Assembly: GCA_044352465.1 (NCBI GenBank)
Contig: JBILDU010000002.1
Location: 25,283 to 89,282, forward strand
DNA from: Bdellovibrionota bacterium
GTDB lineage: Bacteria; Bdellovibrionota_C; UBA2361
DNA: 64,000 bases
Direction of reading: 5' to 3'
Notes under the pieces: generated by a model
Told to the model about the DNA's origin: nothing
Databases searched by the model: none
The model's input: the letters and a program-made list of their open reading frames with translations, nothing else
Part shown: positions 10,166 to 64,000 of the stretch, one piece after another
How the letters are laid out: each line of letters starts with the position of its first letter
How positions within the stretch are numbered: the first letter of the stretch is position 1
Translations under genes and position numbers: made by a program

Positions 10166-11023
10166 CTATTGCAAGAGACGGAGCGCCACTTGCGGTTGAA
10201 GGTTCGCCTGCGCGAGAACCGCTTGGGCTGATTGCTGAAGCACCTGTAAGCGGACCATGTTGGCGACCTCCTCAGCGACGTCGACATCGCGGATACGACT
10301 CTCCGCGGCGATGAAGTTTTCTCGCGCGACGGAAAGGTAATTAATCGCGCTCGACAAACGACTCTCGACCGCGGCGATAGTCCCACGCGTCGACGTTAAT
10401 GAAAGTATCGCGTTTTGAATACTACTCACCGCGGTAGTCGCCGCCGTCTGCGAGAAGGCTATTGATGTTGAGATGATCGATACCGTGAGTTCGCTGGAAG
10501 CGTTGCCGATGCCGAGCGAGCTGAGTGTGCCTAAAACTCCGCTAATCGTGATCCGTGAATCAGCAGAGCCGGTGAGCCCAACCTGCAACGTAATGCTCGA
10601 GGAGTTCGATAGAAGGTTGAACGTATTAAAAACGGTAGCTCGGGAGATCCGGTCTATCTCTGATCCGAGGGCGATAAATTCAGACGAGAGGGCCGAGCGC
10701 TGCGCTTGAGTAAAGACTCCGTTGGCGCTTTGCTGGGCGAGTTCAAGCATGCGATTGAGAATCGTATTGACCTCCCCGAGAGCCGCATCCGCTATCGAAG
10801 TGATAGAGATCCCGTCGTTGGCGTTTCGGATAGCGACTGAGGCGAGTCGGGCGTCGGCGCGGAGGTTGTCCGCGAGCGCTAAGCCAGCCGGGTCGTCGGA
10901 AGCAGAGTTAATCCGCAGACCTGACGAGAGACGTTGAAAAGAAAGGCTGAGCCTATTCGTGGTGAGACCGAGTTGTCTTTGAGCGCGAACCGAGTCAATC
11001 GCACTCGCAATTGAAAGAGACAT
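10166..11023 (-). CDS. Flagellin (compact, D0/D1 only)
   Basis: RLSSGLRINSASDDPAGLA, LNRMLELAQQSANG, EIDRISRAT.FN, AAESRIRDVDVAEE, AQANLQPQVALRLLQ. Confidence 0.93.
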   Translation of the reverse strand: MSLSIASAIDSVRAQRQLGLTTNRLSLSFQRLSSGLRINSASDDPAGLALADNLRADARLASVAIRNANDGISITSIADAALGEVNTILNRMLELAQQSANGVFTQAQRSALSSEFIALGSEIDRISRATVFNTFNLLSNSSSITLQVGLTGSADSRITISGVLGTLSSLGIGNASSELTVSIISTSIAFSQTAATTAVSSIQNAILSLTSTRGTIAAVESRLSSAINYLSVARENFIAAESRIRDVDVAEEVANMVRLQVLQQSAQAVLAQANLQPQVALRLLQ

Positions 11024-27345: not shown

Positions 27346-28416
27346 ATGTTTAGTCTTTGGAAAAAGCAGGAGCAGCTCGTCGGCATCGATATCGGAGCTG
27401 CGGCGATTAAAGTTGTTGAGCTCGAACTCGGTAGAAGTGGGGCTCGACTCCGTCGCGCGGAGCTCTGGCCGCTCAAAGGGGATGTCTTTTCCAACAATTC
27501 GATTACTAAGCCGGATCGCGTCGTCGGTGAGCTTCTCCGACTGTGTGATAACGTTCCGCCGCCCCGCGCTGTGACTGCGGTTCCAGCCCCGAGCGTCTTT
27601 GTAAAAAAGATTACCGTTCCAAAGTCGGGTGGAGCTGCCCTTGCAGCAAACGTGCAGCTTGAAGCGAGCAATCTGATACCGCACAAGCTCGATGCGGTGC
27701 GGCTTGATTATCAGGTGCTCGGGATGAGTGGCGCTAACCTGATGGAGGTGCTGCTCGTCGCGGTGAAGGGCGACGTGCTGGATAGTTTTACGGGGTGTCT
27801 CAACGGGGCGGGAATCGAGACAGCGATCGTCGATGTGGACCTCTTTGCTTTGCAGAACGCTTTTGAGTTTACCCAACCGGAGCGTGCTCAGTCTACCGTG
27901 GCCCTCGTTAATATCGGGGCCCGTTACACGGGTGTGAACATCTGTCGCGGTGGCCGCTCGCTCTCGAGCGGTGACATGGCGATTGGGGGACGCGGATGCA
28001 CCGAGGCTTTGATGCACCATCTCGGCGTCGGATTCGACGAAGCCGAGCAACGCAAGATTCGATGTGACCACGATGAGAAACGCGCCGAGATTCATGAAGT
28101 GTTAGGGCGTTGGGTGGATAGCGCGGCGCTTGAGATTAATCGGCAACTAGGACTTCTTTGGGGCGGAGTTGCCGCCGATGGACGGATCGATTCCGTCATC
28201 GTGAGTGGGGGCGGTTCGCTCGTTCCCGGATGCCTTGAGGCGCTATCGCGGCGAACCGAATTGCCGTGTGAGCGGCTCGACCCATTTCGGGGCCTCGAAC
28301 CCGGGGATATCTCGGGAGCAGGTGGTGAGCTAGCTGCAAGTGCCTCGATGGGGGTCGCGGTCGGCCTCGCCCTGAGACGCTTGGGTGATAAATCCACGGC
28401 GGGGCTAGCGGTATGA
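27346..28416 (+). CDS. pilM: Type IV pilus assembly protein PilM
   Basis: Actin-like GIDIG..AIKVVEL, VDVDLFALQNAF, VNIGA, VSGGGS, AVGLALR; first gene of pilMNO. Confidence 0.92.
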   Translation: MFSLWKKQEQLVGIDIGAAAIKVVELELGRSGARLRRAELWPLKGDVFSNNSITKPDRVVGELLRLCDNVPPPRAVTAVPAPSVFVKKITVPKSGGAALAANVQLEASNLIPHKLDAVRLDYQVLGMSGANLMEVLLVAVKGDVLDSFTGCLNGAGIETAIVDVDLFALQNAFEFTQPERAQSTVALVNIGARYTGVNICRGGRSLSSGDMAIGGRGCTEALMHHLGVGFDEAEQRKIRCDHDEKRAEIHEVLGRWVDSAALEINRQLGLLWGGVAADGRIDSVIVSGGGSLVPGCLEALSRRTELPCERLDPFRGLEPGDISGAGGELAASASMGVAVGLALRRLGDKSTAGLAV

Positions 28417-29009
28417 TTAAAGTTAATCTTCTGGGCGAACCGGCCGGGATCGATCGTGCTACCCAACGGTGGTTCGGTGCCTACGGTGCCTCGGTACTAC
28501 TCCTCGTTACCCTTTGCGGTGTTGTCTATGCGAGCTCCATCGCCCGAGTCGGGGCGCTCGAGAGCGAGACGACGGAGCTTAATAGCACGCTCTTAAAGCT
28601 AAAAAAGGAGACGAAAGAGGTACGCGAGCTTGATGCCAAAAGGAAAGAGCTCCACGCCAAACTCGATGTTATCGCCCGATTGAAATTGACTAAAGTGGGG
28701 CCGGTGCGTGTCCTTGACGATCTAAACCAAGCGGTCCCGGAGCGGGTGTGGCTAACGGAGATAGCCGAAACAGCGACGATCTTAAAGTTGAGTGGCTATG
28801 CCCTCGACAATCAGACTATCGCAGCGTTCATGAAGGAGCTTGAACGTTCTGATTTTTTTGAAACGGTCGAGCTCGTTGAAACGAAGCAGATGGATCGAGA
28901 TGGCGTGAAGATGAAGCTCTTCACCCTCGAGTCGAGGATAAACTACGCTGGCGCCTCCCCCAAGCCAGCGGCTACCGCGGACACTGCTCCGGAGGGGCGA
29001 GTCGGATGA
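28413..29009 (+). CDS. pilN: Type IV pilus assembly protein PilN
   Basis: MIKVNLL motif, TM, coiled coil, VPERVWLT..., GYALDNQTIAAFM. Confidence 0.92.
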   Translation: MIKVNLLGEPAGIDRATQRWFGAYGASVLLLVTLCGVVYASSIARVGALESETTELNSTLLKLKKETKEVRELDAKRKELHAKLDVIARLKLTKVGPVRVLDDLNQAVPERVWLTEIAETATILKLSGYALDNQTIAAFMKELERSDFFETVELVETKQMDRDGVKMKLFTLESRINYAGASPKPAATADTAPEGRVG

Positions 29010-29635
29010 ATGAATTCCTAACTCGATTTATGGACCGGCCGCGGGGTCATAAGATCGCCGCGTGGGTTGGGAGCCTCCTCCTCGTCGGACTGGTGTTCTG
29101 GCAGTCCTTCTATGCTGACATCGCTCAGCAGGTTGCTGTATTGCAGGAGCGTCGTGCCGACCTGAATTCACAGATCGAAGTTGAGCAACGGCTTGTCCGG
29201 AACTTGGCCGCCTATCGAACCGAGGTGGGTGAGCTCGAGGTTCAACTCCGCCAAGCGCTGCAAGAGCTCCCTGATAAAAAAGAGATTCCTGAGCTTCTGA
29301 AATCAATTTCAACCCTGGCGACTCAAGCGGGGCTCGAGGAGGCTCTGTTTCGTCCGGTGCCGGAAGTTTTTCGTGAGTTTTACGCCGAAGTCCCGGTAGC
29401 GATAGCGGTTCAGGGGACGTTTCATCAGGTGGCGAAATTTTTCGATGAAGTTGGCCGGCTTCCCCGCATCGTCAACATCAACCAGATCGCGGTGCGGGAA
29501 CCTGAGCTCAAAGACGATGAGGTGAGAATTAAAGCGGAGTGCACCGCGACGACTTTTCGGTACCTCGACGAGGCCGAAATGGCGCGTCACCGAGAAGCAA
29601 CTGAGGATGCCAAGAAGCGTCGGCGTCGCTCGTGA
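29006..29635 (+). CDS. pilO: Type IV pilus assembly protein PilO
   Basis: TM, coiled coil, LPDKKEIPELL, FYAEVPV, FFDEVGRLPRIVNI, ATTFRY. Confidence 0.93.
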   Translation: MNEFLTRFMDRPRGHKIAAWVGSLLLVGLVFWQSFYADIAQQVAVLQERRADLNSQIEVEQRLVRNLAAYRTEVGELEVQLRQALQELPDKKEIPELLKSISTLATQAGLEEALFRPVPEVFREFYAEVPVAIAVQGTFHQVAKFFDEVGRLPRIVNINQIAVREPELKDDEVRIKAECTATTFRYLDEAEMARHREATEDAKKRRRRS

Positions 29636-30226
29636 GGTCGGTGCAAGACGGTAATACGACACCAACTCCGGGATCCGACGCGCCGTCGACTACTCTCCAA
29701 TCTGCCGCCTCAAAATTTTTTCGCCGGCTCTCACACCTTGTCGTTTCCTAATCCGTGGGGCTCCATCTCCGCCGCAGCCGCCGAGAGTGTACGAAGGCGA
29801 TCTTGTGGGAAGCGTGAGACAAGTAAACGGCGTTCGTGACGGAACGTCCGGCGTGGGGCCTCCCGTTGAGAGATGTGTAATTTTGATACTCCGTTCTAAT
29901 GAGATCGCTTGTTGCAGAGTCGTTCGGAGGTCGGCTCTCGAGCCGAGCGGGGGGATGTCTGCAGAAAGAGGATTGACAGTTCTAACCCCAAAACCTTATT
30001 CAATTTCAGAGGCTTCCGGCGTCCTCCGCTGTTTTCAATTGCCTTATTTTCGGAAAAGCTCCCACACGAGGAGCCGGTTGGTTCAACGAGGTTTGCTTCT
30101 TCTCAGCGGTTGAGAAGGTGGTTGTTTCCGTTTTCGTTGCAATCCCGTTGCCTGTCGAAAGCATCATAGCCCAGACACCGTTGTGTCGGCTCAGCCTTCG
30201 GCACCGGTTGTTTTACGTTAGAGTAA

Positions 30227-32191
30227 ATGGAGAAACTCATGATTGTGAGCCCGAGAGTCATGCGGGGGAATCGCTCGATTCGGAGCGGTTTGTTGGCGGT
30301 CGCGGCCGTTTTGTGTCTTGTCGCGGGTAGCGCCTCGGCGGCGCCATCGAACGAAGCGGCGGCAAATGGAGCTGCAGCGACAAGCGGTGCGAACTCGACC
30401 TCGGAGTTGAGTGCAGACTCCGCCGTGACGGCGATTCGGATTGAGCCACTCGGTGCGACTGAGAACGCAATCATCGGCGAGCTTTCGAAGCCGACCGGGG
30501 TAACCTTAAAAAAGACAGCTCCATCGGAGTACGTTCTCTCACTTGAAAATGCCACCCTTGCTGAGGCGGCTGCGGCGACGTTGGTAGCTCCGCCGAGTGC
30601 CGGAACGATTCGTTCGGTTCGTCCATTGACCGATGCAAAGAGCGCCACTTTTCGGATCTTTGCTGCACCGACCGTGGATTTGAAAGCTGAGGTGCGCGGC
30701 AACCAGTTCGTGGTGAAGGCGGCGACGACGTCGCTCGACGAGCGTGCGCAGATGGATCCGAACGGAGCTCCAGCACCTGCCGCCGACGCAGCGGCTAAAC
30801 CGGCGAGTGCCGATGAGGTGACGATTTCCGGACCCGAGGCACCCACTCAGGAGATGGACGCCGAAGTCGCGGCGCTCTTGAGCGAACAGCCCAAATATAG
30901 CGGTCGACTCATCTCCCTTGATCTCCAAGATACCGATATCGATAACGCTTTGCGGATTATCGCTGAGGTCTCGAACTTGAACATTATCGCGAGCGAAGAT
31001 GTTGCCGGTAAGGTAACGCTGCGGCTCATCGACGTGCCGTGGGATCAGGCGCTGGATGTTATCCTCAAGACGAACGCCCTTGATAAAGTTCAAGAGGGGA
31101 ACGTCGTGCGCATCGCGCCGGTGGAGAAGCTGCGTTTGGAGCGGGAAGCTCTGAAGCAGTCTCAGCAGGCGGAAGACGATCTCGAACCTCTCTCGGTGAA
31201 GTATATTCGGGTCAGCTACGCGAAAGCGGCTGAGCTCAAGCCTCTCATCGATACGGTCATCTCGGAGCGCGGCTCGGTCTCATACGATGAGCGGACTAAT
31301 CAGCTTATCGTCAAAGATATTCGCAAGGGGCTCAAGAACGTCGTTGAGCTCGTCTCGAAACTTGACCTGCGCACTCCGCAGATCTTGATCGAGACCCAGA
31401 TCGTTGAAGCGAAACGTGACTTTTCGCGTGAGCTTGGAGCGGAGCTCGGCTTCCAGTCGATTCAATCGCCGGAGACCGGTAACGCTACGAGCCGAAATTT
31501 TCCGAACTCGATCAACATCGTTGGTTCAACGGATGATAAAGGCACGTTCTCAAGTTTCCCGGCGGCATCGGGAGCTGCGGGGATCAGCTTCCTGCTCGGC
31601 AGTGCTGATGGATCGCTATCACTTAATACCCGCCTCTCCGCCCTGGAGAACGAGGGGCGTGGTCGTGTGGTGAGCCGTCCATCGGTGGCCACGACCAATA
31701 ACAAGCAGGCAGTGATTAAGAGCGTCGAGAAGGTGCGCATTAAGACCCCAAGTGGGGGTGTCTCGGTAGCGACCGGCTCGGGTGCTTCGGCGAGTGGTAC
31801 GAGCGCCGTAGCCACGGAGGTTATTGAAGTCGGTATCGTTCTTGAGGTAACCCCGCAGGCGTCGCCGGACTACTTCGTCCTTCTTGATATCAATGCGAAG
31901 TCGAGTACGCTCGGCGTGGCGCGGGTAGATGGCATTCCGGGCGAGATTGAGCGGAGCGCCACCTCGACCGTGCTCGTTTCAAGTGGTCAGACCTTTGCGA
32001 TGGGTGGCATCTACAAGATCGACGACTCAACGAGCGTTGAGGGCGTGCCGTTCTTCAAAGACATACCGTTCATCGGCCACTTCTTTCGCAGCCAGTTGGT
32101 GGATAACGGAGACGAGGAGCTGCTCTTCTTCCTGACTCCCCGGATCGTTGAGGGTAGTTTCGACGATGCTGCGATGAAGGTTAATTCGTAG
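30227..32191 (+). CDS. pilQ: Type IV pilus secretin PilQ
   Basis: YSGRLISLDLQD, VTLRLIDVPWDQALD, DERTNQLIV, QILIETQIVE, LEVTPQ, GVPFFKDIP, ELLFFLTPRIV. Confidence 0.95.
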   Translation: MEKLMIVSPRVMRGNRSIRSGLLAVAAVLCLVAGSASAAPSNEAAANGAAATSGANSTSELSADSAVTAIRIEPLGATENAIIGELSKPTGVTLKKTAPSEYVLSLENATLAEAAAATLVAPPSAGTIRSVRPLTDAKSATFRIFAAPTVDLKAEVRGNQFVVKAATTSLDERAQMDPNGAPAPAADAAAKPASADEVTISGPEAPTQEMDAEVAALLSEQPKYSGRLISLDLQDTDIDNALRIIAEVSNLNIIASEDVAGKVTLRLIDVPWDQALDVILKTNALDKVQEGNVVRIAPVEKLRLEREALKQSQQAEDDLEPLSVKYIRVSYAKAAELKPLIDTVISERGSVSYDERTNQLIVKDIRKGLKNVVELVSKLDLRTPQILIETQIVEAKRDFSRELGAELGFQSIQSPETGNATSRNFPNSINIVGSTDDKGTFSSFPAASGAAGISFLLGSADGSLSLNTRLSALENEGRGRVVSRPSVATTNNKQAVIKSVEKVRIKTPSGGVSVATGSGASASGTSAVATEVIEVGIVLEVTPQASPDYFVLLDINAKSSTLGVARVDGIPGEIERSATSTVLVSSGQTFAMGGIYKIDDSTSVEGVPFFKDIPFIGHFFRSQLVDNGDEELLFFLTPRIVEGSFDDAAMKVNS

Positions 32192-59576: not shown

Positions 59577-60425
59577 TCATCGGCGACCCCGCGAGAAGCC
59601 GAGAACGAGGGAGGTAAGGAGAGGCGGGGGAGGCGCGTTGACCGCAGAGCGAACCCCTGGGGGAAGGGAGACGGTTCGCGGGGCCAGAGTCCTTACCGAA
59701 ACAAATGGCGAAGCGTCGCGAACCACGATCGCCCCTGTTGCTGAAACGAGGGTGAGCACCACCGGAGTGAGTGACTCGATTGAATGCAGCAAAATATCAC
59801 CACCAGCGATGATCAGCGCGTCCCCGGTAACTCGCAGCGGTGCCACCGTCTCGAGGAATCCAGCCACGGAGAGACGGGTGTACGGTTGATGGGTGCCTGG
59901 ACGGGGCAGTTCGACTGCCTCGGGTATGAAGCCGTTGACCGGGAAGGCGGTACTCTCCGCGAGGAGCGCCGAGCGAAGGATACATGTCGTTAGAGAGCGC
60001 ATCGACCCGCGCGAGAGGGGTTCGCCGTTGAACGACCGATCGCCTTGGGCTTGCCGCGATTCAGCACATCCGGTCGAGGGAATGAGCACCGAATCGAGAT
60101 CGATCGTCGGTCCGACGAGGAGATCCACTGTCGATTCGATCGAAAAGCTCCGCATCGATGCTTGGGCCGATCGGCTCTCAAGGTGCGGTGAGGTCGTTGC
60201 GGTGATACGAGGTAGGGCGAGCTGATCGATAAGGGAAGCGGTCGCGCGGAAATACGCACGGTCTGAATCGATTGTCGTGCTAACGGTCGCACTGCTCCCC
60301 ATGATCACCCGCCAGGTGGCGAGGCTTAGAAGCGCGAGGAGCGACACGCCCATGAGGAGGGCGAGGGCGAGAAAGCCCTCCTCTTGGCTAGGTCTACGGA
60401 CCTTTGAGGGGTGGTCAAGGGTCAT
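59577..60425 (-). CDS. PilX-like minor pilin
   Basis: EEG|FLALALL hydrophobic helix without Glu5; RAYFRA; ATGA overlap with the upstream gene. Confidence 0.6.
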   Translation of the reverse strand: MTLDHPSKVRRPSQEEGFLALALLMGVSLLALLSLATWRVIMGSSATVSTTIDSDRAYFRATASLIDQLALPRITATTSPHLESRSAQASMRSFSIESTVDLLVGPTIDLDSVLIPSTGCAESRQAQGDRSFNGEPLSRGSMRSLTTCILRSALLAESTAFPVNGFIPEAVELPRPGTHQPYTRLSVAGFLETVAPLRVTGDALIIAGGDILLHSIESLTPVVLTLVSATGAIVVRDASPFVSVRTLAPRTVSLPPGVRSAVNAPPPPLLTSLVLGFSRGRR

Positions 60426-61285
60426 CGGCGAGCCCCCATAAAGGTAAAGAATGTGGAACGGTAGGTGCTGGGAGGTAAAAAATCGAGGCTCCAAGGGGGG
60501 CCGTGGGCGAGCTGGAGCGAGACTCGATAGGCCGGTGGAAGAGAAGCTGTACCCGCAGTGATTGATATCTGCATCGCTTTAAAGCCCCTTAGGAGGGGCT
60601 GATTTTCAGGCGTCTCAAACCCCCGATGGCTGAGATAGCGGATCTCCCCGGTGTGAGAGAGATACACCGAATACTCCCGTACGACCGGTATGAATGTCGT
60701 TGCCGTCGTGAGCGTTGCCGGGGATAGCGGCACCACAGTACTGGGGATAGGGGAGAGGTGTGCCTCAAAGCATGGAGTGGCTGACGTTCGGTGTAGAGTT
60801 GCGGTCGTTAAGAGCGCCCCATCGACCGAGAGTGCCAGCAGGAGTCGGGTATCGCTGGGGGGACTCTCTCCCCAGCGAGAGCAGATTTCCAAGGCTTCAT
60901 TCGGGAGGGGCTGGTGGAGGTCGAGCGTTCCGCGTATCGCGAGCTCAAGAGCTGAGACTCCGTTGCTCTGAGGCGCCGGATGGAAACGCGGATGATTGAC
61001 TATCGGGTGTGTCGTTCCATCGGTATACGCGATAGTTCCATCGGGATGGATCCTGGCAGGAAGAGGGAGGCGGTGTGCGCTGACATGCTCGAAGAGCGGA
61101 GTCAAAATCGCTTTTAAAGAGGTGACATGAGAGATTTCTTGGCTCGTTACTCTCGTCTTCTGATGGGCTTCGATAGCAGCCGTAACCGCAGCGGTGAGTC
61201 CGATAATAAGAGGAGCTCCCACGATGAGTGTTGTGAGTATCTCAAGGATCGTTGTCCCGATCTCGTGTTTGCACTGGGGGAGCAT
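60422..61285 (-). CDS. PilW/PulJ-like minor pilin
   Basis: EIG|TTILE prepilin-like motif plus hydrophobic helix; late NQPLL motif. Confidence 0.6.
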   Translation of the reverse strand: MLPQCKHEIGTTILEILTTLIVGAPLIIGLTAAVTAAIEAHQKTRVTSQEISHVTSLKAILTPLFEHVSAHRLPLPARIHPDGTIAYTDGTTHPIVNHPRFHPAPQSNGVSALELAIRGTLDLHQPLPNEALEICSRWGESPPSDTRLLLALSVDGALLTTATLHRTSATPCFEAHLSPIPSTVVPLSPATLTTATTFIPVVREYSVYLSHTGEIRYLSHRGFETPENQPLLRGFKAMQISITAGTASLPPAYRVSLQLAHGPPWSLDFLPPSTYRSTFFTFMGARR

Positions 61286-61290
61286 CGGTG

Positions 61291-61587
61291 TTACGACCCC
61301 ACATAGAAAGCGCGACGTGAGTCGGACGTGCCCCCGCAGATAACGGTCGCACCGTCGTGGATACAGGGGGGCTTGCTCCCGTGGGTAGAGAGCTGCTGGC
61401 CGAGGTGCTCACGCAGGCGCTGAGTGATGAGGCGTAGTTTTAAAGCTCCCTCGTACCCTGCTTTCGAAATGCTGAGCGCCACGAAGGAGATGAGTGCGAG
61501 CGCTAACATAAGCTCGAGGAGGCCGAGCCCTCGATTATTAAAACGTTTCAACACGACCCTCGCCCCTCTTTCAATCGATCGATACAC
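61291..61587 (-). CDS. PilV-like small minor pilin
   Basis: NNRG|LGLLELMLAL prepilin motif; C-terminal Cys pair; start may be GTG 61554. Confidence 0.6.
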   Translation of the reverse strand: MYRSIERGARVVLKRFNNRGLGLLELMLALALISFVALSISKAGYEGALKLRLITQRLREHLGQQLSTHGSKPPCIHDGATVICGGTSDSRRAFYVGS

Positions 61588-62080
61588 TGACTCGGCCTCG
61601 GAGAGACACCGTCACTCGCCCGACCCGGTTTTCACTCTGTAGGACGATCGTGCGTGGTGAGGTTGCACCCGAGGGGAAAAAAATGAGCTCTACCTCTGCA
61701 TCCTTGGCGCTACGACATTCGACACGTTCGTCGTAACGGTGGACACGCCGTGTTGATGCGGAATCGCCGCGAGCCGTATTGCTCTCAAGAGCCAGCGGAA
61801 CGGTCCACCCCGTCCGTGAGACCGTGAGCTGCTGGCGCACACCCGACGTTACGGCTCTGAGGTGAAGCTCTTGAAGCACCCGGGTAAGCGTTTCGATCTC
61901 CCCCCGGAGGGCGAATCCCGCGCCGAAGGAGCGACCCGAACCGTAGACCAATCCACCGACGATGCCGCAGAGCGCCACCCCGATGAGGAGCTCCACGACC
62001 GAAACACCGCGCGATTTGGCGACCGGCCTTCGCGGTGCCCGTCGGATAAGCGCGCTCGGTGCTGAACAGGTAAAAGCCAT
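61571..62080 (-). CDS. FimT/GspH-like minor pilin
   Basis: SRG|VSVVELLI motif; RAV..G; LIFFPSGATSPRTIVL...VTVSLRGRV C-terminus. Confidence 0.72.
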   Translation of the reverse strand: MAFTCSAPSALIRRAPRRPVAKSRGVSVVELLIGVALCGIVGGLVYGSGRSFGAGFALRGEIETLTRVLQELHLRAVTSGVRQQLTVSRTGWTVPLALESNTARGDSASTRRVHRYDERVECRSAKDAEVELIFFPSGATSPRTIVLQSENRVGRVTVSLRGRVSVSID

Positions 62081-62273: not shown

Positions 62274-63116
62274 CTACGAGAGTGATTTCTTCTCGCGCTC
62301 TTCGTCGGAGGTGGGGCGCGTTCGCGCGGAGTCAATACCGTTCGAAGAGGAGTCGATAATCGTCTCATTTGAACGTTGGGTCAGGAACGGGTCGGATAGC
62401 TCGGAGGCGTAGACACTGGCGAGGGCGGCAGGGCTTATGAGATTACCGCCACCGGCGGCTTGAGCCTCGGCTTTTGCCGCTAGGGTCTGGGCATCTTCCA
62501 GTTCTACGACGGACGATATCTTCTTTGAGAGGCCCTCGTTACCGGCGATAAACGAGGAGAGCTCGGTAAGGCCGACGTTAAGTCTGACGACAGCGTTGCT
62601 AGCATTTAAAGTAGTTGCAACACTTGCGTTAATCACCCGGGTGACCCCACTTCCGCCGGGAAGGACTGCGGCGACGTTCAGGTCCCGAGATGGAACGTTT
62701 ATGGTGAGGTCGACTGGGGTGCTCTCGAGCACGCCGATGCCGTTTACCGAAGCCGCGGCCTTGACCCTCTGAATCTCATCAGCCTGGGTGTTTATCTGAT
62801 CGTTTAACTCCGTGAGCCGGGCAGACTGGGGGAGATCTTCCGCCTCCTTCGCGATGCGATATTGCTCCAATCGAGCGGTGCGGATGCTCTCGAGAGCTGC
62901 CGCCTGAGTTTCGACAAACCGCTCGGCTAAGCTCACCGCGCGGGGCTTATTATACACCCTTTCAGAGCGAACGATCACCGCAGCGTCGACCTCCTCTCCG
63001 CGTGGTTCGGCTCCAAGGCGGGCGGAGAGGGATTCGGCGTTGCTATCACGCCGCGGAGCCCCCAGAGGGGGATCCCCCCCCCGGGCGCGACGTAGTCGAT
63101 CGATCGGGTTCGTCAT
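62274..63116 (-). CDS. Highly diverged flagellin-like protein (D1-like core only)
   Basis: DEIQRVKAAASVNGIGVLESTPV aligns with EEIQRIGATTEFNGAPVLDGSPL of the adjacent flagellin; D0 motifs absent. Confidence 0.6.
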   Translation of the reverse strand: MTNPIDRLRRARGGDPPLGAPRRDSNAESLSARLGAEPRGEEVDAAVIVRSERVYNKPRAVSLAERFVETQAAALESIRTARLEQYRIAKEAEDLPQSARLTELNDQINTQADEIQRVKAAASVNGIGVLESTPVDLTINVPSRDLNVAAVLPGGSGVTRVINASVATTLNASNAVVRLNVGLTELSSFIAGNEGLSKKISSVVELEDAQTLAAKAEAQAAGGGNLISPAALASVYASELSDPFLTQRSNETIIDSSSNGIDSARTRPTSDEEREKKSLS

Positions 63117-63919
63117 TTCTTACTCCCACTCCCTCCCAGAAGATTAAAGACCGTGGATGTCTCAAGCCTGGCAGCTTGAGCGTTCAACGCCGCCGTCTGA
63201 TTCTGGAGAATCGCCTGCGCCGTTAACTTGGACATCTCCTCAGCCACGTTGAGGTCGGTAATCTGCGCTCGTGCAGCGGCGTAATTTTGGCGCATGACAT
63301 CGTTCAATGCCGAGGCCTTTTCTATCCGCGATGTCGCTGCGCCGATCTCCCCGCGGGCCGAGGTCAGGCCCGTGCTGACCTCTCGAATCGCGTCGATCGC
63401 CGAGCGGGCTGAGGCTTGGGAGGTAAGGCTTTGCGATGTCAGACTCGAAGCGATCTGGGCGAGGTTCACCCCCTCAGCGGTGACGCGTGAGCTGCTCGCT
63501 GAGTCAGTTCCGACCTGAACGACCAGGGGGGATCCGTCGAGAACGGGTGCCCCATTGAACTCCGTCGTTGCACCGATACGCTGAATCTCCTCGACCAGTT
63601 GGTTGTATTGGGCTTGAATCGCCCCGCGCTGCTCGTCATTGAGGGTACCGTTGGCTGCCTGCGTTGCCAGGGCCTGGAGCTCCCCGGTGAGGCTTGACGC
63701 TTGGGAGAGGGCGCTATCAGCGACCTCAAATCGCGAGACCGCATACGAAATGTTCTTAGATGCCTCCGAAAGCGAAGCTATTGATGCGCTGAGCTTCGAA
63801 GCGATGCTTAGTCCAGCCGGATCGTCGGCGGCTTTGGAGATACGTAAGCCGCTCGAGAGTTTCGTAAAAGAGACGAGATTCGGGATCCTGGATCCCGTGA
63901 ATCCACTAACTTTAGTCAT
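63113..63919 (-). CDS. Flagellin with shortened N-terminus
   Basis: KLSSGLRISKAADDPAGL, LATQAANGT, EIQRI..TEFNG, AARAQITDLNVAEEM; GAGG SD upstream. Confidence 0.9.
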   Translation of the reverse strand: MTKVSGFTGSRIPNLVSFTKLSSGLRISKAADDPAGLSIASKLSASIASLSEASKNISYAVSRFEVADSALSQASSLTGELQALATQAANGTLNDEQRGAIQAQYNQLVEEIQRIGATTEFNGAPVLDGSPLVVQVGTDSASSSRVTAEGVNLAQIASSLTSQSLTSQASARSAIDAIREVSTGLTSARGEIGAATSRIEKASALNDVMRQNYAAARAQITDLNVAEEMSKLTAQAILQNQTAALNAQAARLETSTVFNLLGGSGSKK

Positions 63920-64000
63920 GGTACAACCTCACTGTCTACGAATCTCACCCCCCGGAAACGGTGCAGAAAGGGGGTGAAATCCTCCTCTTTAATCCGTGGT

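Follow-up and report, generated by a model that had tools for sequence, protein, structure and literature searches.

The stretch of DNA analysed here (the window) comprises 64,000 nucleotides of a Bdellovibrionota bacterium genome (GCA_044352465.1, contig JBILDU010000002.1, positions 25283-89282), and its end is also the end of the contig, the last base being common to both. At this end, on the minus strand, a two-gene operon encodes a short flagellin of 268 residues (63113-63919) followed by a partner protein of 280 residues (62274-63116). The partner is very probably a conserved flagellin derivative that has kept domain D1 and, as judged by sequence comparison, it belongs to a new, monophyletic and fast-evolving flagellin-derived family that had not been described before. 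Its function is read more tentatively: by analogy, it may be a non-polymerising accessory or regulator of flagellin export or homeostasis, with Helicobacter pylori HP1076 as the closest known case.

Both open reading frames (ORFs) were confirmed exactly as the original prediction had given them. The ATGA overlap at 63113-63116 is also present; it reads tcat on the plus strand, and the ATG of the partner overlaps the TGA of the flagellin. Contigs of four other lake-metagenome runs cover most or all of the same stretch (28 to 30 of 30 depth bins per run), with 0 differences in the parts that they cover.

Flagellin ancestry and fold of the partner

No family model recognised the partner on its own. 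Searches of Pfam (at E ≤ 0.1 and at E ≤ 1) and of NCBIfam matched 0 families, and the protein scored below the gathering threshold of Flagellin_N. Two blocks of similarity to the neighbouring flagellin had been aligned by eye, and both were recovered by programs. The first (QYNQLVEEIQRIGATTEFNG / QINTQADEIQRVKAAASVNG) was the sole stretch found by BLASTP of the partner against the flagellin, with 13/37 identities and E 2e-4, while the second (SVATTLNASNAVVRL / SLTSQASARSAIDAI) fell in the same register in the profile-profile alignment. When 15 members of the partner family were compared with the paired flagellins by hhalign, the probability was 97.4% with E 9.2e-12, over partner residues 64-272 and flagellin residues 60-265. 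A profile search of PDB sequences returned flagellins in 44 of 46 matches (E ≤ 10), the best with E 3.4e-7.

The family as a whole pointed in the same direction. Its alignment has 36 rows (35 distinct sequences), and 17 of the 36 members reach Flagellin_N of Pfam at E ≤ 1, with a best value of 5.7e-7. NCBIfam at E ≤ 0.01 gave 19 families for the 36 members, 13 of which were flagellin or flagellinolysin models; the other six were unrelated models, matched by one member each.

The AlphaFold2 (AF2) model of the partner had a mean predicted local distance difference test (pLDDT) value of 71.5. The N-terminal ~58 residues are disordered, with pLDDT under 50-60, and are followed by a D1 core at residues 59-204 (62505-62942, minus strand) with pLDDT blocks of 77-97 over residues 61-200, and then by low-confidence C-terminal helices and a charged tail. 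The core consists of a helix at 59-93 (the second half of ND1a), a helix at 99-121 (ND1b), a beta-hairpin at 135-152 and a helix at 169-204 (CD1). All 21 Foldseek matches at E ≤ 0.001 were flagellin entries, including filaments, crystals and flagellin-FliS complexes. The best was 5z7q, with E 8.9e-6 and a template modelling (TM) score by target of 0.72, and a structure search of the ESM Atlas gave a flagellin cluster at TM 0.60. The best structural matches of the core are thus minimal D0-D1 flagellins (5z7q of Bacillus cereus and Hag of Bacillus subtilis, 5maw/6gow). The upstream gene is of this same kind. The Bacillus flagellins have complete N- and C-terminal D0 segments, unlike the partner, and polymerise. 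A complex prediction of the flagellin with the partner scored 0.00 in both runs, which had no controls, and was used neither for nor against an interaction.

Profile, PDB and fold evidence therefore agree with the proposal that the partner derives from flagellin, keeps D1 and has no N-terminal D0. The additional claim that both D0 segments had been replaced stood for the N-terminus, where hhalign of partner residues 1-63 against flagellin residues 1-60 gave a probability of 1.4%, but only partly for the C-terminus. There, the last 75 residues show weak colinearity with the end of the flagellin (hhalign 24%, P 8e-4 for the slices alone), and residues 205-259 are helical in the model. At E ≤ 1, the 36 members matched 65 families in all, and Flagellin_C was not one of the 25 matched most often. 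In the partner, nothing corresponds to the LSSGxRI/DDAAG start of D1, since the alignment begins at partner residue 64 and flagellin residue 60. Most relatives of the partner end in LDxxRVxxLL, which resembles the flagellin end. In the window, the C-terminal tail looks odd, and a frameshift was considered as its cause; this was ruled out, since the tail aligns without gaps to LDPERVKALLDDDE of the relatives and the contigs of the four metagenome runs are identical. The odd tail is thus a product of substitution and not an error.

Distribution and evolution of the partner family

Members were assigned to the partner or to flagellin according to whichever profile scored higher. The partner occurs in 25 of the 91 genomes of the order, in 0 of 33 genomes of the phylum outside the order, and in 0 of the 36 genomes of family f9, the largest of the order. 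When genomes were tallied with the partner profile at E ≤ 1e-15, 24 of the 124 sampled from the phylum had a match, none of them outside the order; one match is really a flagellin. An exhaustive search of 1.84 billion representatives returned 10 relatives of 152-287 residues, the 152-residue one being a C-terminal piece, and genome searches added further ones. A word-indexed protein search found 2 proteins with the single partner sequence and 3 with the profile, and a pattern search of genome contigs with the single protein gave 478 matches, 0 of which were confirmed.

The family forms one clade, with a support of 95 in the Shimodaira-Hasegawa-like approximate likelihood ratio test (SH-aLRT). 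Compared with those of the flagellins, its terminal branches are longer, typically by a factor of 2-3. Between the only two species of the genus, the partner had a nonsynonymous divergence (dN) of 0.55 and the flagellin one of 0.26. The synonymous divergence (dS) was saturated, so that for the partner dN can only be said to lie well below dS.

Pairing with one particular flagellin, as had been proposed, was found in 19 of the 25 loci, where a short flagellin type of 257-273 residues was identified by profile immediately upstream of the partner. A further locus, L040, shows the 3' terminus of a flagellin gene in its upstream DNA. Two loci of family f11 (L036:2169-2828 and L038:2175-3002, both on the minus strand) have a degenerate flagellin relic upstream, overlapping the partner start by 4 nt; neither relic matches Flagellin_N, and only that of L038 matches Flagellin_C, weakly (E 0.0024). 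Outside the genus, the gaps between flagellin and partner are 5-127 nt according to ORF calls, and the ATGA overlap is found only within the genus, in 2 of the 19 pairs. Therefore, the stoichiometric production of both proteins claimed in the original prediction did not gain support as a property of the pair, and can only be supposed.

Within its own genome, the partner profile scored 55 bits with the adjacent flagellin and 28-38 bits with the other nine flagellins. In the tree, the paired flagellins are not resolved from the other flagellins of the genome, and the partner clade lies outside all of them; duplication of the adjacent flagellin, which scores best with the partner profile, is thus only a possible origin of the partner. 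No description of a D1-only or truncated flagellin of this kind was found in the literature, subscription-only papers aside. Where sources name the relatives at all, they are named only "hypothetical protein", and the family has no family-model match.

The partner could be thought of as a decaying tandem duplicate of flagellin or as an ordinary FlgL, given its low pairwise identity to its neighbour and the lack of a Pfam match of its own. Both ideas are already contradicted and hardly credible. The frames are open in all 25 genomes and form a single clade with dN well below the saturated dS, and the N-terminal MxFKI and the core motifs are conserved. As for FlgL, it is a flagellin homologue of ~300 residues that acts with the filament without being flagellin, and in this it would resemble the partner. 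However, both D0 segments are present in FlgL, which is recognised by TIGR02550, whereas NCBIfam gave no match for the partner and 0 of the 36 members match any FlgL model at E ≤ 0.01. Furthermore, the true FlgL of the genome is encoded on another contig (C151; TIGR02550 184.9 bits, cut-off 127.2), beside csrA and fliW.

Two other identities were rejected. For FlaG, whose gene commonly follows flagellin genes, the partner did not match PF03646, and FlaG was not among the 25 most often matched of the 65 families of the 36 members; no FlaG was found in the genome itself. An FlgM-like reading, suggested by the MxIDR N-terminus and the LDxERVxxL C-terminus, was dismissed since FlgM was likewise not among these 25 families. 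Four genes at other places of the genome score above the cut-off of the FlgM profile.

The short flagellin and the flagellar setting of the genome

The upstream gene (63113-63919, minus strand) encodes a short D0-D1 flagellin with a shortened N-terminal D0, as determined by Pfam and by alignment with 22 positional orthologues. It matched Flagellin_N with E 6.8e-31 and 107.6 bits (cut-off 26.6) over profile positions 25-137 of 139, and Flagellin_C with E 1.1e-8 and 35.7 bits (cut-off 23). The other 11 Flagellin_N matches of the genome begin at profile positions 1-5, compared with 25 for the paired flagellin. In the alignment with the 22 orthologues, a 15-column gap is seen at the N-terminus, and a full-length N-terminal D0 is not present. 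The 19 residues ahead of KLSSG and the GGSGSKK tail, on which the flagellin had been called atypical, were both read in the translation. The very short N-terminal D0 bears this out, but the shortening is specific to the genus and not general to the orthologues.

The tail is encoded at 63113-63135 by the codons GGA GGG AGT GGG AGT AAG AAA, and GGAG, a candidate Shine-Dalgarno site of the partner, lies within them, 8-11 nt before the partner ATG. The odd tail is thus probably due to its purine-rich DNA also supplying the ribosome-binding site of the partner. In the one other species of the genus, the flagellin has GGGKK at its end.

A flagellar export apparatus is encoded in the genome, with FliS (contig C76), FliW (C151), CsrA and three FHIPEP genes, in addition to FlgL and two FliD genes. 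Across the 3.1-Mb genome, there are three FHIPEP (FlhA-type) genes, two FliD genes (contigs C117, C47, C168; C137, C40) and 12 Flagellin_N matches, and four of the flagellin-type frames have 624-691 residues. Such numbers point to at least two export systems or to a filament of highly mixed composition.

In such a setting, the partner might be a minor structural part that leaves the cell by the flagellar type III system and takes a fixed place in the filament, for instance as a terminator, as an adaptor between segments or as a subunit in contact with the sheath. Its D1 surfaces would dock on the cognate flagellin, and the inner tube would not be propagated by it. Lateral and axial contacts in filaments are mostly made by the D1 core, and no other part of the partner is better conserved or folded with more confidence. 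Its disordered N-terminal ~58 residues resemble the export signals of flagellar substrates, the RVxxLL motif at the C-terminus is like the flagellin end in most relatives, and the 12 flagellin-like genes would suit a composite filament. Nevertheless, this role is unlikely. To our knowledge, all axial proteins have an N-terminal D0 and a motif of the LSSGxRI/DDAAG type, and the partner has no counterpart of either. Its long terminal branches compared with the flagellins, the loss of the C-terminal motif in the species of the window and the loci in which the partner stands alone also speak against it.

Leader, promoter and mini-flagellins

The operon is preceded by a 5' leader at 63920-64000 (minus strand), which is cut by the contig end and was recognised by box conservation and stem covariation. 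Its hairpin occupies 63940-63982, and the loop carries the motif TTTCTGCA (63962-63969); the invariant box GACAGTGAGGTTGTA lies over the Shine-Dalgarno site at 63922-63936, likewise on the minus strand. Among the relatives' loci, the 15-nt box GACAGUGAGGUUGUA was exact in 13 of 24 and had 1-3 changes in 5 more; the own genome has a single copy of it, and the 7 other flagellin loci examined have none. The stem sequence of the hairpin is wholly different between taxa and yet its pairing is kept, with compensatory changes in 7/7 pairs of RNAalifold. Single-sequence folds gave stems of 6-17 bp in the 9 core taxa, and of 12-17 bp in 8 of these. The loop keeps UUUCUGCA in the relatives. An Rfam scan of 8 leader-bearing loci gave 0 matches at E ≤ 1.

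The leader was read in relatives L014, L016, L019, L021, L023, L024, L035 and L037. By hand, the loop CUUUCUG can be paired with CAGUGAG of the box at 6 of 7 positions, a pairing that could hide the ribosome-binding site.

Upstream of the leader, a promoter pattern like TTAAG-N15-CCGATA was found in 9 of 22 readable regions of relatives, whereas shuffled sequences gave 0.57 on average and at most 3, and further relatives' loci have a CCGAT-like -10 element 105-175 nt ahead of the ATG. Judging from these patterns, the locus in relatives is headed by a promoter of the FliA (sigma-28, attack-phase) type. In Bdellovibrio bacteriovorus, the FliA motif accounts for 92 of 140 attack-phase promoters, and FliA drives many non-flagellar genes too (PMC3627812). 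In several relatives (L056:9983-10468, L058:10313-10768 and L055:10827-11306, all on the minus strand), the flagellin promoter is directly preceded by a gene of the same strand for a TerB-domain protein of ~150-160 residues; in the window, the contig ends before the equivalent position.

The leader marks this locus across the order, 41 of whose 91 genomes were matched by its covariance model. Among the further matches, 22 were inspected, which precede a short flagellin in 3 cases, an ORF of 116-150 residues in 16 (one of which is cut off by the contig end), no readable ORF in 2 and an unrelated 503-residue gene in 1. The small ORFs encode mini-flagellins (L069-L088, families f6 and f9) with a disordered N-terminus that bears an AFKRLSSG-like motif, and one long C-terminal helix of 84 residues. 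This helix aligned with flagellin residues 176-266 at 94.4% probability and E 8.5e-8. Their 46 database relatives have no Pfam domain, and the 17 that are named by a source are all a "hypothetical protein". The own genome has no separate mini-flagellin, the best match of the mini-flagellin profile being the paired flagellin. In family f6, pilin genes lie directly behind the mini-flagellins.

At this locus, the leader and the flagellin termini are therefore preserved and D1 is not, which argues that the conserved job is not filament building. The eroded flagellin D0 in the genus, the degenerate upstream genes in two genomes and the termini-only mini-flagellins all argue that the locus is not under filament-building constraint.

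With such a leader, a secretion-coupled translational regulator can be envisaged. The short flagellin, the partner or both, when retained in the cytoplasm, would repress through the leader, either directly or by FliW-CsrA or another RNA-binding factor, and export would relieve the repression, as for FljJ or Hag of B. subtilis. The strong conservation of the leader, the restriction of its box to this locus, the presence of CsrA and FliW in the genome and the mini-flagellins, which keep only the export and chaperone-binding termini under the same box, are consistent with it. However, GGA is the core of the CsrA motif and the conserved box does not contain it, the partner has no N-terminal FliW-binding region, and nothing ties the partner, in contrast to the flagellin, to the RNA. 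FljJ would be a precedent (PMC7591256), but a search for FlbT (PF07378) gave 0 matches in this genome, the completeness of which is 94.9%. A regulator of this kind is thus quite unlikely.

Proposed role and comparison with known systems

In the reading that we tentatively prefer, an accessory or regulator of flagellin export or homeostasis, the locus would make flagellin derivatives without a structural task, which pass through the pathway that handles flagellin (FliS, the export gate and possibly a FliW-CsrA circuit). The partner would most likely be a soluble D1 mimic that occupies flagellin-binding surfaces, by analogy with HP1076 on FliS, and it would tune the export, stability or assembly of its cognate flagellin instead of building the filament. 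Since the N-terminal D0 helix is missing, it would not be able to extend the filament core. The region contacted by FliS and the C-terminal domain of FlhA is D1-C together with the C-terminal helices (PMC6070490), and this region appears to be kept in the partner. The same source gives the N-terminal 60 residues of B. subtilis flagellin as sufficient for FliW binding. The partner has no such part, and the earlier idea of a FliW decoy is weakened accordingly. The roles of chaperone, cap or effector proposed beside it are putative.

HP1076 is D1-like and non-polymerising, competes with flagellin for the same FliS surface and is expressed with the flagellar genes (PMC7248283; PDB 3k1h, 3k1i and 6lea). 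Its fold likeness to the partner is weak (HP1076 chains in Foldseek E ~1e-2, with 1.7e-2 for 3k1h, and TM by target 0.45-0.46), and no sequence relation was seen, with 0 of the 46 PDB sequence matches (E ≤ 10). HP1076 is restricted to epsilon-proteobacteria, is membrane-associated and does not lie behind a flagellin gene, unlike the partner. On the other hand, the partner is demonstrably flagellin-derived and keeps the beta-hairpin and C-terminal helices, which HP1076 does not, while its binding to FliS is putative.

Flagellin derivatives with other tasks are also known. FlaC of Campylobacter jejuni keeps both D0 and D1 termini and stands alone, and we know of no paired flagellin or special leader described for it. 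It is reported to be a flagellin-like, secreted protein that is dispensable for motility (PMC4863622). FljJ of Caulobacter crescentus is a flagellin paralogue that is unable to build a filament alone and mainly controls flagellin translation, a control relieved by its own secretion (PMC7591256). It is full-length and 49% identical to the structural flagellins, still enters the filament and needs FlbT. The partner differs from it by the missing N-terminal D0, and by the genome in which no FlbT was found.

Several observations weigh against the preferred role. The paired flagellin keeps the canonical flagellin motifs in most lineages, with a mean column identity of 53%, and may well be an ordinary filament subunit. 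The partner is found without an adjacent flagellin in 3 of the 25 loci (G009, G027 and G014), and the neighbouring flagellin is therefore not strictly needed. In the species of the window, the hydrophobic residues of LDxxRVxxLL are substituted, so that the most flagellin-like candidate FliS site is degraded. The FliA-type promoter, by analogy with B. bacteriovorus, would be a mark of attack-phase genes generally and not only of flagellar ones (PMC3627812). In addition, none of the 20 runs listed for the stretch is an RNA run. Finally, an hp1076-null mutant is reported to have no motility phenotype (PMC7248283), and the analogy with HP1076 thus predicts a subtle role.

Few non-structural flagellin derivatives have been studied (FljJ, HP1076 and FlaC), though bacteria with many flagellins are common. 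To these are added here a natural D1-only flagellin family, termini-only mini-flagellins at the same locus in sister families, and a covarying leader outside Rfam. Together, these three offer a dissection made by nature, and open to testing, of the flagellin parts that serve export, chaperone binding and regulation as against those that serve polymerisation. The organisms concerned are predatory bacteria, which must switch motility and attachment. Should the partner bind FliS or the export gate, it would reveal how the export of a dozen flagellins in one cell is put in order or limited.

Downstream pilin-like genes and other features of the window

Behind the partner, four pilin-like genes follow on the minus strand. 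The first (61571-62080) encodes a GspH/FimU-like minor (pseudo)pilin (N_methyl E 0.0032; TIGR01708 GspH E 1.2e-6, below the cut-off), the second (61291-61587) matches N_methyl with E 3.3e-5, the third (60422-61285) has a pilin-type N-terminus by regular expression, and the fourth (59577-60494) encodes a pilin-like or membrane-anchored protein of 305 residues with no family match. No terminator was found by a scan of the minus strand across the 193-nt gap between the partner and these genes, which is weak evidence. Pilin-like genes occur within ~1.5 kb after the partner in 16 of the 25 loci (9 identified by regular expression and 7 by eye), and also after a partner-less flagellin or mini-flagellin in six loci (L041, L042, L071, L069, L070 and L072). 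The wider neighbourhood is syntenic as well, with TerB upstream and SIS/CBS and TraB-family genes nearby. Other genes lie between the pair and the pilins in G039 and G042, and no pilins follow the pair in G010. It is unproven that the pilin genes are part of the flagellin-partner system.

These neighbours raise the question of an attack-phase role outside the flagellum, in which the flagellin derivatives would act together with the neighbouring minor pilins of the type IV system, or be secreted or displayed at the surface for contact with prey, and the FliA-type promoter would reflect only the attack-phase programme. The recurrence of pilin-like genes behind the partner and behind the partner-less versions, and the absence of a terminator-like site before them in the window, would fit such a role. 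The top sequence matches of the partner are cell-surface flagellin homologues of Sphingomonas (PDB 3k8v and 2zbi), and many non-flagellar attack-phase genes are under FliA in B. bacteriovorus (PMC3627812). Nevertheless, the TerB, SIS/CBS and TraB-family genes are syntenic too, and inherited gene order may therefore explain the adjacency of the pair to the pilins. The intervening genes, the locus with no pilins and the 193-nt gap also count against it, and neither protein has a signal peptide or a pilin-type N-terminus. All in all, this role appears markedly improbable.

A bolder proposal, to which we give only a small chance, joins both lines. The locus of this order, under its riboregulatory leader, would make a "taken-apart" flagellin, with export-competent termini (the short flagellin or the mini-flagellin of 116-150 residues) and a separate D1-only module. 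The pieces would be a secretion-coupled signalling device and not filament parts, reporting the state of the export gate and coupling swimming to the type IV pilus attachment of the attack phase through the co-oriented minor-pilin genes.

Elsewhere in the window, a second, ordinary flagellin of 285 residues is encoded at 10166-11023 (minus strand) beside an RcpC/CpaB gene, and a pilM-pilN-pilO-secretin cluster occupies 27346-32191 (plus strand).

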